DNA of 64,000 bases, from NCBI RefSeq assembly GCF_050920415.1, contig NZ_CP169309.1; one strand, 5' to 3'. This document shows positions 45,509 to 54,326 of the stretch, piece after piece. The notes beneath the pieces are model-generated. The model did no database searches. It was not told where the DNA came from and saw only the letters and a list, made by a program, of their open reading frames with translations. The position numbers were made by a program, and so were the translations under genes. Numbering within the stretch: position 1 is the first letter of the stretch; the number at the start of each line of letters is the position of its first letter. Origin of the DNA: Escherichia coli. Its GTDB lineage: Bacteria > Pseudomonadota > Gammaproteobacteria > Enterobacterales > Enterobacteriaceae.

Positions 45509-46648
45509 TTAGTACAGAGAGTGGGTGTTACGTTCAATATCTTCTTTGGTGATACGACCGAACATTTTCCAGTAGCACCAGGCGGTGTAGAGCAGAATGA
45601 TCGGTACCAGAACCACCGCAACCCAGGTCATGACGTTAAGCGTCAGCTGGCTGGAAGTTGCATCCCACATTGTCAGACTTGCGTTCATCATGGTGCTGGA
45701 CGGCATCACAAACGGGAACATTGCAATACCGGCAGTCAGGATGATGCAGGCCAGCGTCAGGGAGGAGAACACAAACGCCCACGCCGCTTTATCCATACGT
45801 GCAGTCAGAATGGTCAGCAGAGGCAGAACCACACCCAGTACCGGAATAGCCCACAGAATCGGCGTGTTGTTGAAGTTCACCAACCATGCGCCAGCTTCAC
45901 GAACCACTTCTTTATTCAGCGGGTTAGATGCCGCGTAATGGTCCATTGTTGATTTCACAACATAACCATCGATACCGTACATCACCCATACGCCAGCCAG
46001 TGCGAAGCAGACCAGTGTCACCAGAGCCGCCACCTGAGCCGTTGCACGAGTACGCAGGTGCAGTTCGCCCACGGTGCGCATCTGCAGATAAGTCGCGCCC
46101 TGTGTAATGATCATCCCTACGCTCACCACACCTGCCAGCAAGCCGAACGGGTTAAGCAGCTGGAAGAAGTTACCGGTGTAGTACAGACGCAGATATTCAT
46201 CCACGTTGAACGGTACGCCCTGCAACAGGTTACCAAACGCCACGCCAATCACCAGCGGCGGAACGAAGCTACCAATGAAGATGCCCCAGTCCCACATGTT
46301 ACGCCAGCGGGTTTCTTCAATCTTGGAGCGGTAGTCAAAACCGACCGGACGGAAGAACAGAGACGCCAGCACGAGGATCATCGCGACATAGAAGCCGGAG
46401 AACGCAGCGGCATAGACCATCGGCCAGGCAGCAAACAGAGCGCCACCCGCAGTGATCAGCCATACCTGGTTACCGTCCCAGTGTGGTGCGATGGAGTTAA
46501 TCATAATTCGACGCTCGGTGTCGTTACGACCGAGGAAACGGGTGAGCATGCCCACCCCCATGTCGAAACCGTCAGTGACTGCAAAACCAATCAGCAGAAC
46601 GCCAACCAGCAGCCACCAGATAAAACGCAATACTTCATAATCGATCAT
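45509..46648 (-). CDS. cydB: Cytochrome bd-I ubiquinol oxidase subunit II (379 aa)
   Basis: Matches CydB. Confidence 0.95.
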   Translation of the reverse strand: MIDYEVLRFIWWLLVGVLLIGFAVTDGFDMGVGMLTRFLGRNDTERRIMINSIAPHWDGNQVWLITAGGALFAAWPMVYAAAFSGFYVAMILVLASLFFRPVGFDYRSKIEETRWRNMWDWGIFIGSFVPPLVIGVAFGNLLQGVPFNVDEYLRLYYTGNFFQLLNPFGLLAGVVSVGMIITQGATYLQMRTVGELHLRTRATAQVAALVTLVCFALAGVWVMYGIDGYVVKSTMDHYAASNPLNKEVVREAGAWLVNFNNTPILWAIPVLGVVLPLLTILTARMDKAAWAFVFSSLTLACIILTAGIAMFPFVMPSSTMMNASLTMWDATSSQLTLNVMTWVAVVLVPIILLYTAWCYWKMFGRITKEDIERNTHSLY

Positions 46649-46663
46649 TTGACGACTCCTGTC

Positions 46664-48232
46664 TTAGCGTGCCGGCTGAGTAGTCGTGGAAGACTGCTCA
46701 AAGTGATAGCGACCGGTTTTCAGGCTGCTTGGGCCGAGGCGTGCAAACTTGAACATCAAGAACAATTCTGCCACCAGGAACAGGGTATACAGGCCACAAA
46801 TCAGCACCATCGAGAAGATGAGGTCGCCTGCGGTCAGTGACGAGTTCGCTACAGCTGTCGGCAGCACTTCACCGATAGCCCAAGGTTGGCGACCATATTC
46901 AGCCACGAACCAGCCCGCTTCTACAGCAATCCACGGCAGCGGAATACCGTACAGTGCGGCGCGCAGCAGCCATTTTTTCTCGCCAATACGGTTGCGGATG
47001 ACACTCCAGAAAGAGAGCGCGATGATTGCCAGCAGCAGGAAGCCACACGCCACCATGATACGGAACGCGAAGTACAGCGGCGCTACACGTGGAATGGAGT
47101 CTTTGGTTGCCTGTTGAATCTGCGCTTCAGTCGCATCCGCCACGTTTGGCGTGTAGCGTTTCAGCAACAGACCGTAACCGAGGTCTTTCTTCATGCTATT
47201 GAACTGGTCACGAACCGCCTGGTCAGTAGACCCAGAACGCAGTTGCTCGAGCAGAGAGTACGCCTTCATCCCGTTACGGATGCGTTCTTCATGCTGCACC
47301 ATCAGCTCTTTCAGGCCGATAACCGGGGTATCCACGGAACGCGTTGCAATGATGCCCAGCGCGTAAGGGATCTGGATCGCAAATTTGTTCGTCTCCTCTT
47401 CCTGATCAGGAATGCCGAACAGAGTAAAGGCAGCAGGTGCAGGTTGCGTTTCCCACTCGGCTTCAATAGCAGCCAGTTTGGTTTTCTGCACGTCGCCCAT
47501 TTCATAACCAGATTCATCACCCAGAACAATAACAGACAGAACGGCAGCCATACCGAAGCTGGCAGCGATAGCAAAGGAGCGTTTAGCGAAGGCGAAGTCA
47601 CGACCTTTCAGCATATACCATGCGCTGATACCGAGGATGAACATCGCGCCAGTCACATAACCAGACGCTACCGTGTGAACGAATTTCACCTGAGCAACCG
47701 GGTTAAGCACCAGCTCGGAGAAGCTCACCATCTCCATACGCATAGTTTCAAAGTTGAAATCGGACGCGATTGGGTTTTGCATCCAGCCGTTCGCAACCAG
47801 AATCCACAGCGCGGACAGGTTTGAACCGAGCGCCACCAGCCAGGTGACACACATATGCTGAACTTTACCCAGACGATCCCAACCGAAGAAGAACAGACCT
47901 ACAAAGGTGGATTCGAGGAAGAAGGCCATCAGACCTTCGATTGCCAGCGGCGCGCCGAAAATATCCCCTACATAGTGGGAATAGTAAGACCAGTTAGTCC
48001 CGAACTGGAACTCCATGGTCAGACCGGTTGCCACACCCAGAGCGAAGTTGATACCAAACAACTTGCCCCAGAACTTGGTCATATCTTTATAAATCTGTTT
48101 GCCGGAAAGGACGTAGACCGTTTCCATAATGGCCAGCAGGAACGCCATACCGAGCGTCAGTGGCACAAAAAGGAAGTGGTACATCGCGGTCAAGGCAAAC
48201 TGTAAGCGCGACAGTTCGACTATATCTAACAT
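46664..48232 (-). CDS. cydA: Cytochrome bd-I ubiquinol oxidase subunit I (522 aa)
   Basis: Matches CydA incl. Q-loop. Confidence 0.95.
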
Positions 48233-48568
48233 CATGACTCCTTGCTCATCGCATGAAGACTCCGAGAGTGAACCCCGTTAGAAAGGGTCACACGCATGCC
48301 CCAATACAAAATTATTTGCTCGCCTCTATCGCTGCCTTTTCCTCAAAAGTGGAAAAGACAATGATAAAAAGTTACAAATATGTTAATGAATAAACCAAAT
48401 TGATCCCGTAATTATATTACGCCGCAAAATCCTTACAATAAACAGGTTTTTATTGAGCAAATTTGCATTTTTCGACAGTGATCAATTTATAGCGAAATTG
48501 TCACGACCTCACCAATTTGATCTACGACAATTTATCGTGTTTTGCAGATTTTTTTCAAGAATTAAAAA

Positions 48569-48582
48569 TTGATTTATATCAA
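48569..48582. promoter_or_regulatory. FNR-type site in the long AT-rich cydAB control region
   Basis: TTGATTTATATCAA (TTGAT-N4-ATCAA). Confidence 0.6.
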
Positions 48583-49035
48583 AACCAATCAAATATGTTA
48601 ATTATGTATAAACCATAGACCATTGGTAATTTTATTGTTAATTTATTGTGAAATATTTATGTAACACAATTATTACAATAAAAAGACATAGATAAAAAAC
48701 CAGTGTTTTATTTAACAGAATCGCCTTATCAACTTTTTATAATACCAATTGATTAGAGTAGCCAATTTGTTGCTATTTTACATAACATATTTTTATCAAA
48801 GTTAATTGATTGTTGCCTTTATGAGCATCGCCGTAAGACCGCCATGTTATTGTTTCATTTGTAATAATCACCAATAAGTATCGATGAGAGAGATATCGCT
48901 TAACAGAGGCGACTGTGTCTGCATGAACACAGGCAACTTTCGCCTGATAAACGAAAAATGAGCGATTTTTGCAAGTTAGTTTTTCTATAGCTGGGTACGC
49001 TGAGCGCCTCGCTTGATTACAATGAGGTTGCTGCC

Positions 49036-49980
49036 ATGGGTCTTGATAATATAGGTTCTGTTGTCAATCGCTTCTCTGGTTGGCCATCAAATGATCCTCT
49101 AAAAACAGATAACGAATCAATGACATCACCCGTGACTGTGCAGGTAATAAAGTTGATTGCCGCCATCCTTGACCCACATCGGATAGTCGTTGGTATCGAT
49201 ACACTCTATACAACGCAGCGCAAAACATTTACCTCAGAGGGTCAACAACTCATTGAATCAGCATTGAAAACACTTAATGTGATGAATTTAAATAACCTGG
49301 AAACAGATCGCGATGAGGAGGGTAACTATCTGGCTTTTGGATATAACGTTGACACTCCTGACAGAATAACCGTTTCTGCTTATAATGAAAAAAAACCTTT
49401 CTGTTATGGCCAATGTCTTTTAATACAGGATGAAGAACCAGATTTATTTAACCTGGTAAAAATTAAAACCTTTGAAGCCAGGCATAATTATGTTTCTAAA
49501 TTGATGAGCGATCCGGAATTTATGTTTAAATTCAGTTATAGCGCCCAACAAAATAGATTAGAACCTCATCTTCTGGTTCCCACTTATTTCCCTCTGAAAA
49601 CAAACCAACCGGTTACGCTAGAGGATTTACTGATACTTTATCGTTTCTTTAAAATGAATGGCGATTTTAATATATTAACATCAGATGAATACATGAGTAT
49701 CATGACACCTCTGATGAAGTGTGAGCGTAGTGTCCACGACCATAACAGGTATGTGACGGGCAAAGATGCTCTTCTTCTGGACAATCCTCCGTCTGGTAAC
49801 CAGATATATTTCCATATTTCCCCTGACGAATCAGCAACACTTGTCCTTTATTTTTCAGACAATAACCTTGAATCCTTCGTCTTTGAAAATGATATTCCGA
49901 GCCAGTATCGACATTTCAAAATGTTTACCAATTTAGCACTAGTTATTGATCAGTTAACCGACGCCAATCAAATACTTTAA
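49036..49980 (+). CDS. Hypothetical protein, AT-rich (314 aa)
   Basis: Long ORF with AT-rich codon usage unlike the flanking backbone; no family recognised. Confidence 0.5.
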   Translation: MGLDNIGSVVNRFSGWPSNDPLKTDNESMTSPVTVQVIKLIAAILDPHRIVVGIDTLYTTQRKTFTSEGQQLIESALKTLNVMNLNNLETDRDEEGNYLAFGYNVDTPDRITVSAYNEKKPFCYGQCLLIQDEEPDLFNLVKIKTFEARHNYVSKLMSDPEFMFKFSYSAQQNRLEPHLLVPTYFPLKTNQPVTLEDLLILYRFFKMNGDFNILTSDEYMSIMTPLMKCERSVHDHNRYVTGKDALLLDNPPSGNQIYFHISPDESATLVLYFSDNNLESFVFENDIPSQYRHFKMFTNLALVIDQLTDANQIL

Positions 49981-50059
49981 TTTTCTATACAGCCCTGTGT
50001 AAAATATTGCTAAACAGTGCCCGGGGTTGATTTTTATTCCTCACGGTGATATTTAAATC

Positions 50060-50482
50060 ATGACACCATCTCAGCTCTCTTTTAATACTCTTCCTGTCAA
50101 TGCAACATGCACTTCAGAGATAACAGTAAACACACAAAAATTCTCTGACATCCTCTACTCAGTGGGGTATTCCCTAAAGGATCTGGCTTATCTGAGCAGA
50201 TGTCTGGCATCATTACACCCAACACTCGCCAAAAACATTTATGAAACGGAAAATCTCAGCGATCAAAAATTACTTTATATAGATTGCCGTAGTACAAATG
50301 AAATCAAGATAAATATATTTTTGGGTCAAAAAAGAGAAGAATTAATCGAAATTAGTTCTGATACAGTCATTTTTTCGATACTGTCTTCATTGATTGACTC
50401 AGCTATTTCTGAACATCGACATCAAATCACCGTTAATGATTCAAATAATTCTGAACTATTTTATGAGGATTATACTGATTAA
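50060..50482 (+). CDS. Hypothetical acidic protein, AT-rich (140 aa)
   Basis: ORF co-oriented with and 80 nt downstream of 49036-49980. Confidence 0.45.
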   Translation: MTPSQLSFNTLPVNATCTSEITVNTQKFSDILYSVGYSLKDLAYLSRCLASLHPTLAKNIYETENLSDQKLLYIDCRSTNEIKINIFLGQKREELIEISSDTVIFSILSSLIDSAISEHRHQITVNDSNNSELFYEDYTD

Positions 50483-51024
50483 ATCCACTCTGTGCGAACC
50501 TGTCCTGCATTTATGCCAGAAGTATTAGAATCTTTGCTTAACGTTACTCATACAGTAGCACCTTCATGTGTCTCTCTTTTTTACGAACAATCAAAAGAAC
50601 TAACAAGGGGCATAATTCGTATAAATTATTAACCATTTGTTATATTCAACATTTTTTTACATTAAGCAGAGATGAATTGCAGTGAAATTCAAGTTAAATT
50701 TTACGAAATGTATTACTCATGGCTAAAAAATCTTCCCAAAATGCAAATTAGAAGTTGATCACAATTATCTCAATCCATCAAATCAAGATAATTTTAAAAA
50801 TTTAACATCAATGACAGCGGTTGGCATAACACACTGAATTAAAATGAAAATTTAAAAAACAATTTTTAAACAATCATTTCCCGAAAGACATTTTGAAAAT
50901 AGATCAATTGCAACATTACGGTCAGATAAAGACACTCCTCTGATATTAAACCTGTGCCGTTATGAACGGCCATAAATACGACGTGTGTAACTTAATTTAC
51001 TCTCTGTCTTACAAAGGATTACCC

Positions 51025-51474
51025 ATGAAGAAAGCAACACTTGTGATTGGCGTTATTGGCGCGGACTGCCATGCAGTAGGCAATAAAGTTCTGGACCGCG
51101 TTTTTAGCAACCATGACTTCAGAGTCATTAATCTGGGCGTAATGGTCAGCCAGGACGAATATATTGATGCTGCCATTGAAACTGGCGCTGACGCGATTGT
51201 CGTCTCCTCTATCTATGGGCATGGCGATATCGACTGTCTGGGCATGCGCGAACGCTGCATTGAGCGTGGCTTGGGGGACATCCTGCTCTATGTGGGCGGC
51301 AACCTGGTGGTCGGAAAACATGACTTCGCTGACGTGGAAACCAAGTTCAAAGAGATGGGATTTGATCGCGTCTTCGCCCCAAGTCATGACTTAGAAGATG
51401 TCTGCCAGCTGATGGCCCACGATATCAACCAACGTCATGGCGTTGAAACTTGCATTCTTGAAGAGGCAATCTGA
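51025..51474 (+). CDS. glmS: Glutamate mutase sigma subunit, B12-binding (methylaspartate mutase S; 149 aa from MKKATL)
   Basis: Close match to clostridial MutS/GlmS ([18 protein letters not shown]..., GDIDC...); symbol is not the glucosamine-6-P synthase. Confidence 0.85.
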
Positions 51475-52862
51475 TGCAAATCGTCTCTGTCGATATTGGA
51501 TCGACGTGGACCAAAGCAGCCCTCTTCACCCGGGAGGGGGACGCGTTAACGTTGGTTAACCACGTTCTGACCCCAACCACCATCCATCATCTGGCAGAGG
51601 GATTTTTCTCCAGCCTTAACCAGGTGTTAAACGTAGATAATGCCCTCCCCCTGTTAAACCGCGGTGAGGTTGCATTGAAGTATTCCTCTTCTGCCAAAGG
51701 TGGGCTGGCGGTTGCCGCAATGGGAATAGTGCCTTCTATCACTCTGGAAACCGCGAAAGTAACCGCTCACTCTGCAGGTGCTAAAATTGCGCAATATTAC
51801 TCCTACAAGCTGAACCGCCGTGATATCCAGGCACTAGAAGAAACGCAGCCCGATATTCTCTTGTTCACCGGCGGCACCGACGGCGGAGAAGAAAGCTACG
51901 GACTGAATAACGCCCGTGTGCTGGCAGAATCCAAACTCGACTGCGCCATTATTTATGCCGGAAACCGGGATATTCAGGACAAGGTGCAGGAGACCCTCGG
52001 GCATAAAGACCTGACCATCGTCGACAACGTTCTGCCCGATCTTGACCATCCGAACCCTTTAGCTGCACGCCAGGCTATCTGCGACATATTCCTTAAACGC
52101 ATCGTTAAAGGGAAAGGGCTGGATGTCATTGTTGATAAAACAGGCGAAGAACCAATGCCGACACCATGGACGGTCTTTGAACTGGTGAAGGCAATCAGTA
52201 ACGTCGATCACAGCTGGAAAGAGTTCATGCTGATCGACATGGGCGGCGCAACCACCGATGTCTATTCCGCCTGTGCCAACACGCTCTCGCCCGACACTGT
52301 TTTACATGGCGTACCGGAACCCTTCGTAAAACGGACGGTGGAAGGCGATCTGGGAATGCGCGTCTCGGCAATGGTGGTTGGTGAAAGTGCGAAAGAGTTA
52401 GTCAGTGTGAATTTTGCTCAGCAACCCGCACAGTTGGACGCTTTTTATCATTACCTCCGTCATCTAGTCGCTCATCCCGACTACTTACCCGCGAATGCAG
52501 ATGAAAAATATTTCGATACCGTCCTGGCCGGACTGTGTGTGGGTTATGCCACCGAAAGACATGCGGGCACCAAAAAAGAGGTCTGCACCTGCGTCGGCAA
52601 TGTCGATTTACAGATGGGACGTGACCTGACAACCGTGCGTAAAGTCGTGGGTTCCGGCGGATGGCTCTCGCGTGCCAGTCAGTTCGATATGCATCACTGG
52701 TTGAAATACCGCGAGTTAAACGACGACGGTAAACGCATTCTCTTACCGACCGAATTTGAATATTACCGCGATTCCCGGGGGCTATTACCACTGCTGGCAA
52801 ACGTCGCCAGAGTCGATCCGCTGGCCGCCGCGCGCACCAGTATTCAATGCTTAACCCTATAA
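51474..52862 (+). CDS. glmL: Glutamate mutase-associated MutL/GlmL-like protein (462 aa)
   Basis: Conserved position between the S and E subunits; start overlaps the glmS stop. Confidence 0.65.
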   Translation: MQIVSVDIGSTWTKAALFTREGDALTLVNHVLTPTTIHHLAEGFFSSLNQVLNVDNALPLLNRGEVALKYSSSAKGGLAVAAMGIVPSITLETAKVTAHSAGAKIAQYYSYKLNRRDIQALEETQPDILLFTGGTDGGEESYGLNNARVLAESKLDCAIIYAGNRDIQDKVQETLGHKDLTIVDNVLPDLDHPNPLAARQAICDIFLKRIVKGKGLDVIVDKTGEEPMPTPWTVFELVKAISNVDHSWKEFMLIDMGGATTDVYSACANTLSPDTVLHGVPEPFVKRTVEGDLGMRVSAMVVGESAKELVSVNFAQQPAQLDAFYHYLRHLVAHPDYLPANADEKYFDTVLAGLCVGYATERHAGTKKEVCTCVGNVDLQMGRDLTTVRKVVGSGGWLSRASQFDMHHWLKYRELNDDGKRILLPTEFEYYRDSRGLLPLLANVARVDPLAAARTSIQCLTL

Positions 52863-52880
52863 CAATTAAGGCTGCAATCA

Positions 52881-54326
52881 ATGGAACTTCGAAATAAGAA
52901 ATTAACCCATGACGAATTCATGACCGAGCGGCAACAGGTATTGAAAACCTGGGAAACCGGCAAGGATGTTGAAAACTTTGAAGATGGCGTTAAATACCAA
53001 CAAACCATTCCTGAGCATAAACGCTTCTCTCTTGCCCTGCTGAAAGCAGACAAGGAAGGTAAAACCCTTAGCCAACCGCGCGCAGGCGTGGCGCTGATGG
53101 ACGAACACATCGAACTACTGAAAACACTACAAGAAGAGTGCGATCTGCTGCCGAGCACTATCGATGCATATACCCGTCTGAATCGGTACGAAGAAGCGGC
53201 TGTAGGGATTAAAAAATCCATCGAAGCCGGAACCTCTAAACTGAACGGTTTACCGGTAGTTAACCACGGCGTCGCAGCTTGCCGTCGCCTCACCGAAACT
53301 CTGCAAAAACCGCTACAGATCCGCCACGGCACGCCTGATGCGCGTCTGCTGGCTGAAATCTCGATGGCCAGCGGCTTTACCAGTTATGAAGGCGGCGGCA
53401 TTTCCTACAATATTCCGTATGCCAAGCGCGTAACGCTGGAAAAATCGATCCGCGACTGGCAGTACTGCGATCGTTTAATGGGGATGTATGAAGAACACGG
53501 GATCCGCATCAACCGCGAACCGTTTGGCCCACTAACGGGTACGCTAATCCCGCCGTTTATCTCGCACTCTATCGCAATAATCGAAGGCTTGCTGGCACTG
53601 GAACAGGGTGTGAAGTCTATCACCGTTGGTTATGGTCAGGTCGGTAGCCTGACGCAGGATGTTGCGGCGATCCAGTCTCTGCGGGAACTTGCACACGAAT
53701 ATTTTCAGAGCTATGGCTATACCGACTACGAATTAAGTACCGTGTTTCACCAGTGGATGGGAGGCTTTCCGGAGGACGAATCGAAAGCGTTCGCCATTAT
53801 CTCCTGGGGTGCTGCCGTCGCGGGGATGTCTGGTGCTACCAAAGTCATCACCAAAAGTCCGCACGAAGCCTGGGGCATCCCGACTGCTGCTGCCAACATT
53901 CAGGGGCTAAAAGCCTCCCGCCAGATGCTCAACATGGTCAACGAGCAGAAATTCCCGCCGTGCCCGGCGGTTGAACTAGAAATTGAACTGATTAAGAGCG
54001 AGGTTCGCGCTGTACTGAACAAAGTGTTCGAACTGGGCAATGGTGATATTGCGCGCGGTACGGTGCTGGCATTTGAAGCGGGCGTACTGGATGTGCCGTT
54101 TGCGCCAGCCGCCTGCAACGCAGGCAAAATTCTTCCGGTCCGTGACAACACCGGCGCGATACGCGTACTGGAAGCCGGAGCCGTTCCATTGCCAAAAGAT
54201 ATTCTCGACCTCCACCACGATTACGTTGCTGAACGCGCGCGCTTTGAAGGACGCCAACCGACATTCCAGATGGTTGTAGATGACATCAATGCTGTATCCC
54301 ACAGTAAATTAATAGGAAGACCATAA
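52881..54326 (+). CDS. glmE: Glutamate mutase epsilon (catalytic) subunit (481 aa)
   Basis: Size and sequence fit MutE/GlmE. Confidence 0.8.
   Translation: MELRNKKLTHDEFMTERQQVLKTWETGKDVENFEDGVKYQQTIPEHKRFSLALLKADKEGKTLSQPRAGVALMDEHIELLKTLQEECDLLPSTIDAYTRLNRYEEAAVGIKKSIEAGTSKLNGLPVVNHGVAACRRLTETLQKPLQIRHGTPDARLLAEISMASGFTSYEGGGISYNIPYAKRVTLEKSIRDWQYCDRLMGMYEEHGIRINREPFGPLTGTLIPPFISHSIAIIEGLLALEQGVKSITVGYGQVGSLTQDVAAIQSLRELAHEYFQSYGYTDYELSTVFHQWMGGFPEDESKAFAIISWGAAVAGMSGATKVITKSPHEAWGIPTAAANIQGLKASRQMLNMVNEQKFPPCPAVELEIELIKSEVRAVLNKVFELGNGDIARGTVLAFEAGVLDVPFAPAACNAGKILPVRDNTGAIRVLEAGAVPLPKDILDLHHDYVAERARFEGRQPTFQMVVDDINAVSHSKLIGRP

Follow-up and report, generated by a model that had tools for sequence, protein, structure and literature searches.

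The FNR site of the cyd control region belongs to a textbook system and is already known. The K-12 cydAB control region is described with promoters P1–P5, FNR sites at -53.5 and -1.5, ArcA-P sites and H-NS, as far as the work of Cotter et al. 1997 and Govantes et al. 2000 is cited in PMC3688515 and PMC3798270. Both K-12 FNR sites, TTGATATTTATCAA and TTGTTCTCGATCAA, lie under the ChIP-seq peak at 770,404/5 (PMC3688515). The first is bound by FNR and lies at -53.5 relative to the cydAB start (Myers et al. 2013, PMC3688515, Table 1 and supplement 6), and the second is listed as a bound site of 14.05 bits (PMC3688515). Work on FNR, ArcA and H-NS in the cyd control region was all done on the K-12 allele. 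Replacement of promoters and intergenic regions in E. coli is referred to as ‘regulatory switching’ (Oren et al. 2014, as cited by Thorpe et al. 2018, Piggy, PMC5890482). The glutamate-fermentation cluster of O157:H7 was described by Kronen et al. 2015 (PMC4682846), where its position adjacent to cydA and the two intervening ORFan genes are not discussed.

The stretch of E. coli DNA analysed here (the window, 64,000 nucleotides) is 100% identical to one annotated E. coli chromosome. The gene cydA (46664..48232, minus strand; cytochrome bd-I subunit I) was identified by NCBIfam NF011677 (1179 bits) and by the RefSeq annotation of the 100%-identical record; its product is WP_000884361.1, identical to the K-12 protein. 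CydA and CydB give NCBIfam equivalog matches, and the spacer under study is situated directly upstream of cydA in the cydABX-ybgE operon. RefSeq places the cydA start codon at window 48232, on the second of the two ATGs in ATGATG, which puts the spacer between cydA and a divergent hypothetical gene at 48233–49035 (803 bp); of the span 48236–49035 given in the initial annotation, the end is retained and the start is corrected. The description of a long and very AT-rich upstream region is confirmed: G+C content is 33.6% in the 803-bp spacer, 30.8% in 48233–48878 and 23.9% in 48500–48800 (about 24% in the centre), with 49.2% for the whole window.

With a probability of about 0.9, the spacer is the cis-regulatory region of cydABX-ybgE, together with 157 bp of the divergent neighbour, and carries an allele designated W here, while the K-12 allele (K) has most probably been imported. 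The earlier reading of the spacer as a cydAB control region agrees with its adjacency to cydA, the FNR sites, the P1 hexamers and three ArcA clusters at K-12-like distances.

Next to the gene, a 73-nt block (48233..48305, minus strand) forms the cydA 5' leader with the Shine-Dalgarno sequence and contains GGAGUC twice. This leader shows 0–2 changes across 17 Escherichia/Citrobacter sequences; the DNA upstream of it is 66–76% identical. A structured RNA element in the leader was considered and is unsupported, since folding stability does not exceed expectation (z = 0.06). A Rfam scan of 47900–51100 (E <= 1) returned no RNA family, and a terminator scan of the spacer found none.

The perfect TTGAT-N4-ATCAA motif reported in the initial annotation is present exactly at 48569..48582 as the palindrome TTGATTTATATCAA (TTGATATAAATCAA in the cydA sense). 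It matches the consensus at 10 of 10 specified bases, is the sole perfect instance in the window and is centred at -343.5 from the ATG, which corresponds to -53.5 of P1. The palindrome aligns in register and base for base with the bound K-12 site TTGATATTTATCAA; the alignment with known cyd FNR sites, on which the initial annotation had made the motif depend, thus upholds it. It is the predicted counterpart of the K-12 FNR site at -53.5 of P1.

That the palindrome is a functionless chance occurrence in AT-rich DNA has almost no probability left, and this explanation is effectively refuted already. AT-richness does raise the frequency of words resembling TTGAT or ATCAA; 0.15 perfect sites are expected per 64 kb, and when the whole window was shuffled 100 times, 14 of the results contained at least one. 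However, shuffling the AT-rich 803 bp alone gave a perfect site in only 0.33% of 20,000 trials. Moreover, the perfect palindrome lies at the corresponding position, -341.5 to -344.5 relative to the cydA ATG, in 16 of the 17 Escherichia/Citrobacter sequences, the remaining one having a single mismatch, so its distance to cydA is fixed in two genera despite flanks that diverge to 66–76% identity. The K-12 homologue is also occupied by FNR in vivo.

A second FNR site, TTGTCGTAGATCAA, is predicted at 48517..48530 (minus strand), where it overlaps the P1 start (-1.5) 52 bp downstream of the perfect site. It aligns with K-12 TTGTTCTCGATCAA, and the centre-to-centre distance to the perfect site is 52 bp in both alleles; two mismatches to the consensus (TTGTC) are found here versus one in K-12. 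A third FNR-like element, TTGATCACTGTCGA (48472..48485, minus strand; 2 mismatches, centre at -246.5), is kept as a 14-mer in 14 of the 17 sequences, and K-12, HH97 and E. albertii have one substitution that leaves both half-sites unchanged. This element is absent from the FNR site list of Myers et al. 2013 (PMC3688515).

The P1 equivalent TTGAAA-18-TAAATT was called by consensus scan at 48529..48558 (minus strand) with a predicted start at about 48522 (-290). The aligned K-12 position reads TTGGAA-18-TAAATT, and the K-12 P1 start was deduced from the -53.5 annotation to be at -288. In a motif scan of the spacer, the -10 region of P1 was found to overlap ACGATAAATT, a 10-mer resembling the H-NS motif. 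A candidate downstream cyd promoter, TTGTAA-16-TATAAT (48411..48438, minus strand; 10/12 matches, predicted start near -172), which presumably represents the published promoter P2, lies within a 39-nt block invariant between the K allele, the W allele and Citrobacter. The number of promoter calls in the spacer (4 versus 3.7 +/- 2.1 expected) is not above chance, and the P1-like and P2-like calls carry weight only because they are aligned with K-12.

ArcA boxes were scored with a position weight matrix built from Table S3 of Park et al. 2013 (PMC3798270), which reproduces the published K-12 scores. The spacer contains 10 boxes of at least 9 bits compared with 1.7 +/- 1.4 in shuffles, and the predicted boxes cluster at the counterparts of three K-12 ChIP-seq regions (PMC3798270). 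The box AAGTTACAAATATGTTAA (48369..48386, plus strand; 20.5 bits at -154) is the counterpart of K-12 region ‘cydA3’, and each of the 17 sequences has an ArcA box between -152 and -155. A cluster at 48595..48678 with scores of 16.2, 16.9, 20.5 and 16.5 bits, the first three of them between -420 and -363, is the counterpart of ‘cydA2’; the K-12 boxes aligned with it score 13.0, 10.4 and 12.9 bits.

Two distal boxes (48782..48816; 17.3 bits at -567 and 14.0 bits at -584) lie in otherwise unalignable DNA and are the putative functional counterpart of K-12 ‘cydA1’ (-590, 20.2 bits). The -567/-584 pair occurs in E. coli strains with the W allele, in HH97 and in cryptic-clade Escherichia; at a 12-bit threshold E. 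albertii has only the box at -568, and the distal pair of K-12 is the Citrobacter-like -590/-635. In a search for repeats, the spacer yielded nothing but short AT-rich pairs; the two exact copies of the 13-mer CAAATATGTTAAT are accounted for by two ArcA boxes.

Identity to K-12 is 99–100% through cydA and the leader and then 60%, 91%, 66% and 47% in successive 100-bp bins. It amounts to 76.7% over -1..-424 and 66% over about -75..-450, and the DNA further upstream could not be aligned. The spacer is therefore not the K-12 allele, being about 66–77% identical from about -70 to -424. All known regulatory sites appear to be kept in the W allele despite a difference of about 25–35% from K-12. Interpretation of the identity drop at about -70 as a recombination breakpoint was rejected as unprovable, the leader being equally invariant in Citrobacter; this boundary may mark the onset of strong constraint.

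Among complete E. coli genomes, 3178 (about 59%) carry the K type at >=99% identity and about 2245 (about 41%) the W type, which is also found in O157:H7; intermediates are almost absent. HH97 is a recombinant with a W-type distal and a K-type proximal part. H30 (strain GB2005-delet-a-f), a candidate for a fourth upstream configuration, proved to contain an engineered cat insertion. A literature search that did not cover Oren et al. 2014 found no earlier report of a cydA promoter dimorphism.

The W-type spacer matches E. albertii at 87%, Escherichia sp. MOD1-EC7003 at 95%, Escherichia sp. E1V33 at 90% and E. coli E69 at 89%; the K-12 allele is 66–68% identical to the same four. The K-12 distal ArcA pattern (-635/-590) and the mngB->cydA synteny match Citrobacter, and the 3' 1.2 kb of mngB in K-12 is only 73–84% identical to that of strain EC28. 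Since E. albertii and the cryptic Escherichia clades carry W, this is probably the Escherichia-wide allele and the K-12 allele is probably the replaced one. The latter is most probably a deeply diverged allele of the same architecture, imported together with the 3' part of mngB by recombination from a non-Escherichia enteric. The direction of replacement is drawn from outgroups caught by one exact 18-mer, with E. fergusonii, Salmonella and many other genera unsampled; none of the outgroups so sampled qualified as the donor of K.

Alternatively, W and K could both be ancient vertical alleles under balancing selection, or W could have been imported from other Escherichia and K be native. Both alleles are frequent (59% and 41%), the Citrobacter-like distal ArcA layout and mngB synteny of K possibly represent the ancestral enterobacterial state, and the diversity of W alleles in E. 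coli is unusually high (87–97% identity). Nevertheless, such a history is rather unlikely: K is nearly monomorphic (>=99% in 3178 genomes), as expected of a young allele, and W identities broadly track relatedness (E. coli 89–97%, cryptic clades 90–95%, E. albertii 87%). The distance between K and W (66%) is also Citrobacter-like, and vertical maintenance would need a polymorphism older than the genus.

Alignment with K-12 had been proposed in the initial annotation for placing the boundary of a neighbouring island. Homology with K-12 stops at about -424, and the boundary was obtained from strains without the cluster: the DNA that these E. coli have in common with the window ends at 48878..48879 (-646 from the ATG). 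The BLAST end points are 48878 for FDAARGOS_1251, EC28, HH97 and E69, and 48871 for Escherichia sp. E1V33. This junction is outside every predicted FNR and ArcA site, and the repeat search within the spacer found no target-site duplication or repeat at 48878.

The 157 bp beyond the junction (48879..49035, plus strand; 45% G+C) precede the divergent ORFan gene, belong to a low-G+C module rather than to the cyd region and recur only in O157:H7, E. albertii and MOD1-EC7003. The module (about 48879–50730, 1.85 kb, 35.9% G+C) includes two ORFan genes on the plus strand (49036–49980, 314 aa; 50060–50482, 140 aa) with dN/dS of 0.35–0.37 versus O157. Their proteins have no family in Pfam, NCBIfam, PADLOC or PHROGs (one PHROG match with E = 0.089 was disregarded), and a search of 5.8 billion sequences places them in no more than 5 protein clusters. 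Since the four profile collections gave no family, these genes have no support for an origin from a phage or a defence system.

The glutamate-fermentation (methylaspartate) cluster starts with glmS, glmL and glmE (51026..54326, plus strand; NCBIfam, the annotation of the identical record and Kronen et al. 2015, PMC4682846) and continues to mal, fumD, cobO and a LysR gene. Its G+C content is 50.7% versus 49.2% in the window, and it occurs in as many genomes as the ORFan module (1135/5426 for each). In three genomes of Citrobacter amalonaticus (80.8% identity), in E1V33 and in MOD1-EC7003, the glm cluster likewise adjoins cydA and is divergently oriented to it. Given this adjacency in Citrobacter amalonaticus and in other Escherichia, the glm/mal cluster is best interpreted as a long-standing neighbour of cydA that has been variably lost, and not as a recent insertion. 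The initial annotation had described the far side of the spacer as horizontally acquired; this fits the low-G+C two-ORF module only and does not extend to the glm/mal cluster with its 50.7% G+C and old adjacency to cydA.

A recent island could in principle have cut off or disturbed a K-12-type region and affect cyd via H-NS spreading or cross-talk. The accessory distribution of module and cluster (1135/5426 genomes), the 1.85 kb of 35.9% G+C at the junction, a typical H-NS substrate, and the end of K-12 homology at about -424 are in line with this. It is nonetheless improbable, as the lost homology reflects allele replacement on the K-12 side rather than truncation, and FDAARGOS_1251, EC28 and E69, which lack the cluster, share the window sequence up to -646. 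Both FNR sites and the three ArcA regions are contained within this limit. The ORFan gene adjoins cydA in E. albertii as well, and its junction there, together with the glm adjacency in Citrobacter amalonaticus and two other Escherichia species, indicates that the adjacency of cydA and its neighbours is old. The annotation of the sucD–cydA interval contains neither an integrase or transposase nor a tRNA or flanking repeat. Any influence of the neighbour on cyd, be it cross-talk or H-NS spreading, would be speculation.

The perfect FNR site might also mainly serve the divergent side through anaerobic activation of the glutamate-fermentation operon or the ORFan genes. The methylaspartate pathway ferments glutamate anaerobically (PMC4682846) and the spacer is common to the divergent genes, but 454 bp separate the site from the ORFan start codon and 2.4 kb separate it from glmS, and the consensus scan called no sigma-70-like promoter on the plus strand of the spacer, including the vicinity of the site. 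It is equally kept in K-12, FDAARGOS_1251 and Citrobacter sedlakii, all without such a neighbour, and its spacing to the cydA P1 is fixed, which makes this role very improbable.

For the cyd control region itself, regulation may be proposed from K-12 experiments and a site-by-site correspondence, with roles transferred by alignment and motif scoring. Transcription would start mainly from the P1-type promoter TTGAAA-18-TAAATT, about 290 nt before cydA, and probably also from promoters farther downstream, for example near -172 from TTGTAA-16-TATAAT. When anaerobiosis is complete, P1 would be repressed by FNR dimers on the -53.5 palindrome (48569–48582) and on the weaker -1.5 site (48517–48530). 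ArcA-P could occupy three groups of direct-repeat boxes (about -150, -365 to -445 and -550 to -585) and raise micro-aerobic expression, mainly via relief of H-NS silencing of the AT-rich DNA. Features relevant to H-NS are the 24–31% G+C and the one motif-like 10-mer at the P1 -10 region.

Tentatively, bd-I expression may be governed in E. coli by two old and sharply distinct control alleles, the K-12 one being xenologous, and W could give a different micro-aerobic/anaerobic bd-I set-point because of its stronger ArcA boxes and weaker start-site FNR site. If true, this would be a lineage-level respiratory difference relevant to gut colonisation; if the outputs of the alleles differ, they would offer a simple example of how the regulation of a respiratory enzyme important for colonisation and nitric-oxide tolerance varies. 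K-12 regulatory maps (RegulonDB/EcoCyc coordinates, ChIP peaks) are not transferable by simple identity to about 41% of E. coli, O157:H7 included. Comparison of W, K and Citrobacter provides a natural phylogenetic footprint of the 650-bp region, in which the constrained blocks are both FNR sites, the third FNR-like element, the ArcA boxes, the 39-nt block with the TTGTAA promoter and the 73-nt leader.

Compared with the closest known systems, the locus resembles the K-12 cydAB region in its gene and leader, in the palindrome (-343.5 here, -341.5 in K-12), in the second FNR site 52 bp downstream, in the P1 hexamers (TTGAAA/TAAATT here, TTGGAA/TAAATT in K-12) and in ArcA box clusters at about -150, -400 and -580. 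It differs in stronger ArcA boxes at -154 and -420 (20.5 bits versus 15.3 and 13.0), in a weaker and displaced distal box (17.3 bits at -567 versus 20.2 at -590), in a -1.5 FNR site weaker by one mismatch and in its upstream neighbour, which is a divergent ORFan gene here and the co-directional mngB in K-12. The cluster beyond resembles that of O157:H7 (PMC4682846) in glmS, glmL, glmE, mal, a DUF1446/AtuA-type gene, gltP, fumD, cobO and a LysR gene, and the glm genes of the two are 97.3–97.7% identical. With regulatory switching, as outlined in the citing work, the locus shares a near-identical core coding sequence, two sharply different upstream regions in one species and a recombinant, HH97; the cyd switch, however, keeps the whole site architecture without rewiring, and the replaced allele seems to be that of the reference strain.

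The cyd control region upstream of cydA is real, its earlier interpretation is largely right, and the system is already known. Added here are the exact junction of the region with its neighbour (48878/48879), a full predicted site map, and the recognition that the region is dimorphic, with the Escherichia-wide allele in the window and the outlier in K-12. The genes cydA (ORF 46664-48235; CydA, NCBIfam equivalog, 1179 bits) and cydB (ORF 45509-46648; CydB, NCBIfam equivalog, 866 bits) are both on the minus strand, and CydA is the K-12 protein (WP_000884361.1). Between 45800 and 46500, cydB has 92-96% identity to each of the five other E. coli compared (flanking parts 97-100%); this stretch may be a small patch of recombinant DNA confined to the window lineage. 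The chromosome of E. coli MFDS1022581 is 100% identical to window 48000-49300, and its record places the cydA start at the second ATG of ATGATG (window 48232). The spacer comprises 803 bp and ends at the upstream neighbour of cydA, a divergent hypothetical ORF (49036-49980, plus strand). The initial annotation described 48236-49035 as AT-rich; the AT-richness is borne out (33.6% G+C; 23.9% for 48500-48800; 49.2% for the whole window), but the left coordinate shifts by 3 bp to 48233.

The perfect FNR palindrome TTGATTTATATCAA is located at 48569-48582, with exactly the position and sequence (TTGAT-N4-ATCAA) first reported for it. It is the sole perfect match within 64 kb (0.15 expected), and shuffles of the AT-rich spacer produce one in only 0.33% of cases. 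In the alignment of the cydA upstream regions it is in register with K-12 TTGATATTTATCAA, the centres lying at -343.5 in the window and -341.5 in K-12 (negative positions count from the cydA ATG). Myers et al. 2013 (PMC3688515) gave a cydAB FNR ChIP-seq peak at 770,404/5 with an FNR site position of -53.5, and their supplement contains TTGATATTTATCAA (14.9 bits) and TTGTTCTCGATCAA (14.05 bits) as bound sites at cydA. Alignment of the motif with a known cyd FNR site was checked and found; since that site is reported as bound, the reading of the motif as an FNR-type site of the cyd control region stands.

The second K-12 site is 52 bp downstream of the first, at -1.5 relative to the start of P1, the main FNR-repressed cyd promoter of K-12; from the FNR site positions of Myers et al. 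2013, this start is deduced to be at -288 from the ATG. Its counterpart in the window is a second predicted FNR site, TTGTCGTAGATCAA (48517-48530), 52 bp from the palindrome, with two mismatches to the FNR consensus (one in K-12). P1-like hexamers TTGAAA-18-TAAATT (48558..48529) lie between both FNR sites and are aligned with TTGGAA-18-TAAATT of K-12. A third FNR-like element, TTGATCACYGTCGA / TTGATCACTGTCGA (48472-48485, minus strand; 2 mismatches, centre -246.5), is near-invariant across 17 Escherichia and Citrobacter sequences and is absent from the list of cydA FNR sites of Myers et al. 2013.

ArcA boxes were predicted with a position weight matrix built from 115 boxes of Park et al. 2013, Table S3 (PMC3798270). 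The matrix scores of the three K-12 cydA boxes (20.2, 13.0 and 15.3 bits) closely match the published ones (19.8, 12.7 and 15.3 bits). At a threshold of at least 9 bits, the window spacer holds 10 boxes versus 1.7 +/- 1.4 in shuffles. They form three groups, with boxes at 48369-48386 (20.5 bits, at -154), 48595-48678 (16.2, 16.9, 20.5 and 16.5 bits, -363 to -446) and 48782-48816 (17.3 and 14.0 bits, -550 to -584). Each group has its counterpart in one of the three K-12 ArcA ChIP-seq regions at cydA, predicted at -152..-122, -418..-367 and -597..-567 (PMC3798270). The exact 13-mer CAAATATGTTAAT occurs at both 48375 and 48590 because both copies are predicted ArcA boxes.

K-12 and the window are 99-100% identical through cydA and its 73-nt leader; upstream of the leader, identity per successive 100-bp bin is 60%, 91%, 66% and 47%, and sensitive BLAST alignment is limited to -1..-424 (76.7% identity). 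The region has the known FNR/ArcA architecture of the E. coli cyd control region, as proposed, but its sequence is not that of K-12. The K-12-type allele (K) and the window-type allele (W), the latter also found in O157:H7, show about 66% identity between about -75 and -450. In 3178 complete E. coli genomes the K-12 segment -70..-424 recurs with an identity of 99% or above, and 2243 have it only as partial 80-90% matches, with intermediates nearly nil; about 2245 genomes are counted as W. The species is therefore dimorphic at this region, K accounting for ~59% and W for ~41% of complete genomes. The dimorphic stretch is window 48300-48660 (3303-3657 of the K-12 locus L001). In the recombinant strain HH97, the distal part is W-type and everything from ~-375 inward is K-type. 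Within W, identity to the window is 97% for O157:H7, 90% for FDAARGOS_1251 and 87% for EC28, and window 48000-49300 recurs at 99% or more in only 7 genomes. No paper reporting dimorphism of the cydA control region was found; replacement of promoters as such is well established in E. coli (Oren et al. 2014, as cited in PMC5890482).

Outgroups were obtained by an exact-18-mer scan of species-representative genomes with TTGTAAGGATTTTGCGGC, a block identical in K and W, so that the sample consists only of genomes carrying the 18-mer. It retrieved the cyd upstream regions of E. albertii, Escherichia sp. MOD1-EC7003, Escherichia sp. E1V33, E. coli E69 and seven Citrobacter. All retrieved Escherichia have the W allele (87-95% identical to the window between about -75 and -450), and K-12 is 66-68% identical to each of them and 67-70% to Citrobacter. 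Like C. sedlakii and C. amalonaticus S646, K-12 has co-directional mngB->cydA, and its distal ArcA boxes (-635(-)/-590(+)) have a layout similar to that of Citrobacter (-638(-)/-594(+)), whereas those of Escherichia W alleles are typically at -584(-)/-567(+); in E. albertii, only the -568 box is found at a 12-bit threshold. The 3' 1.2 kb of mngB is 73-84% identical between K-12 (L035) and W-allele strain EC28 (L034), rising to 92-98% further in, versus 98% for the flanking sucABCD; the diverged block of K-12 thus runs from the cyd promoter into mngB. The most economical reading, with a probability of roughly 70%, is that W is native to Escherichia and that K, as a stretch of 2 kb or more spanning the cyd promoter and the mngB 3' end, was imported from an unsampled non-Escherichia enteric. 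The near-monomorphism of K fits a young allele. No donor was found among the 18-mer-carrying outgroups.

The island boundary was placed using strains without the neighbouring cluster. DNA that the window shares with FDAARGOS_1251, HH97, EC28 and E69 ends at 48878 (-646), ~60 bp past the most distal ArcA box, and E1V33 shares the window sequence up to 48871. Gene order is sucD-TPR-cydA in FDAARGOS_1251 and HH97, and mngB-TPR-cydA in EC28. The first layer beyond is the ORFan module (48879 to ~50730; 35.9% G+C for 49036-50730, counted from the first ORF), with genes at 49036-49980 (314 aa) and 50060-50482 (140 aa), both on the plus strand. Neither protein has a family in Pfam, NCBIfam, PADLOC or PHROGs, and only five related protein clusters were found among 5.8 billion sequences. 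Compared with O157:H7, the ORFs have dS 0.18-0.24 (cydA 0.09) and dN/dS 0.35-0.37; this dN/dS of ~0.36 marks them as real, fast-evolving genes under purifying selection. In most of the 1135 carriers their identity is 80-90%, against ~97.5% for the adjoining glm genes. The module also adjoins cydA in O157:H7, MOD1-EC7003 and E. albertii. The 314-aa homologue of E. albertii NBRC 107761 (L008 1294-2239) is broken into two ORFs of 209 and 108 aa and is probably a pseudogene; sucD lies within ~1.3 kb of it, with no glm cluster.

The second layer is this glm cluster (glmS-glmL-glmE-mal-...-fumD-cobO-LysR, then an RtcB-family gene, then sucD), which serves glutamate fermentation (Kronen et al. 2015, PMC4682846). 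It has 50.7% G+C and 97.3-97.7% identity among E. coli carriers, where its genome count equals that of the ORFan module (1135, all W allele). At its far end, the variable interval has the RtcB-family RNA ligase gene (L033 2196-3593) standing alone between the glm-cluster LysR and sucD; by offset, the approximate position of this gene is just past window end 64000. Divergently oriented, the cluster also adjoins cydA in three Citrobacter amalonaticus-group genomes (80.8% identity) and in E1V33, which has no ORFan module there. E69, which lacks the cluster, has glmS-start fragments (L026 11817-11922; window 50995-51054 and 51183-51235) just past the -646 junction, which look like a deletion scar. 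The stretch between sucD and cydA has therefore long been a variable site, occupied by mngRAB, a TPR gene, the glm cluster or several of these together, rather than the target of a single recent island insertion. The term horizontally acquired, applied initially to the far side, is defensible for the ORFan module but not for the glm cluster, given its G+C content and its place beside cydA in Citrobacter. Cross-talk or H-NS spreading from the neighbour into the cyd region is a speculative possibility; that the arrangement is old speaks for a cyd regulation that tolerates the neighbouring DNA.

The footprint of 17 Escherichia and Citrobacter sequences (25-35% divergence) includes the 73-nt leader (48233-48305, minus strand), which is kept in all 17, with 0-2 changes from Escherichia to Citrobacter and adjoining promoter DNA 66-76% identical. 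GGAGUC is present twice in it, at a distance of 24 nt, and its second copy is the Shine-Dalgarno; no excess folding stability of the leader was found (z = 0.06). The leader may be the target of a post-transcriptional regulator. The FNR palindrome is kept in 17/17 sequences (perfect in 16), as are the right half ATCAA of the -1.5 FNR site, the third FNR-like element, the ArcA box at -152 to -155 and the 39-nt block AAAAACCTGTTTATTGTAAGGATTTTGCGGCGTAATATA; of all promoter-like matches in the spacer, the best one, TTGTAA-16-TATAAT (48438..48411), lies in this block. Judged by this footprint, the cyd control architecture is conserved, with filler DNA free to vary. Govantes et al. 2000 reportedly dealt with promoters P2-P5 and with how much each of the two FNR sites contributes. 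The two alleles could differ in the set-point of bd-I expression. In K-12, FNR represses P1, and ArcA-P activates by antagonising H-NS (PMC3798270, PMC3688515). The retention of the sites while the filler diverges supports the transfer of this mechanism to the W allele, in which, as in K-12, FNR would repress at P1 and ArcA-P would activate through antagonism of H-NS.
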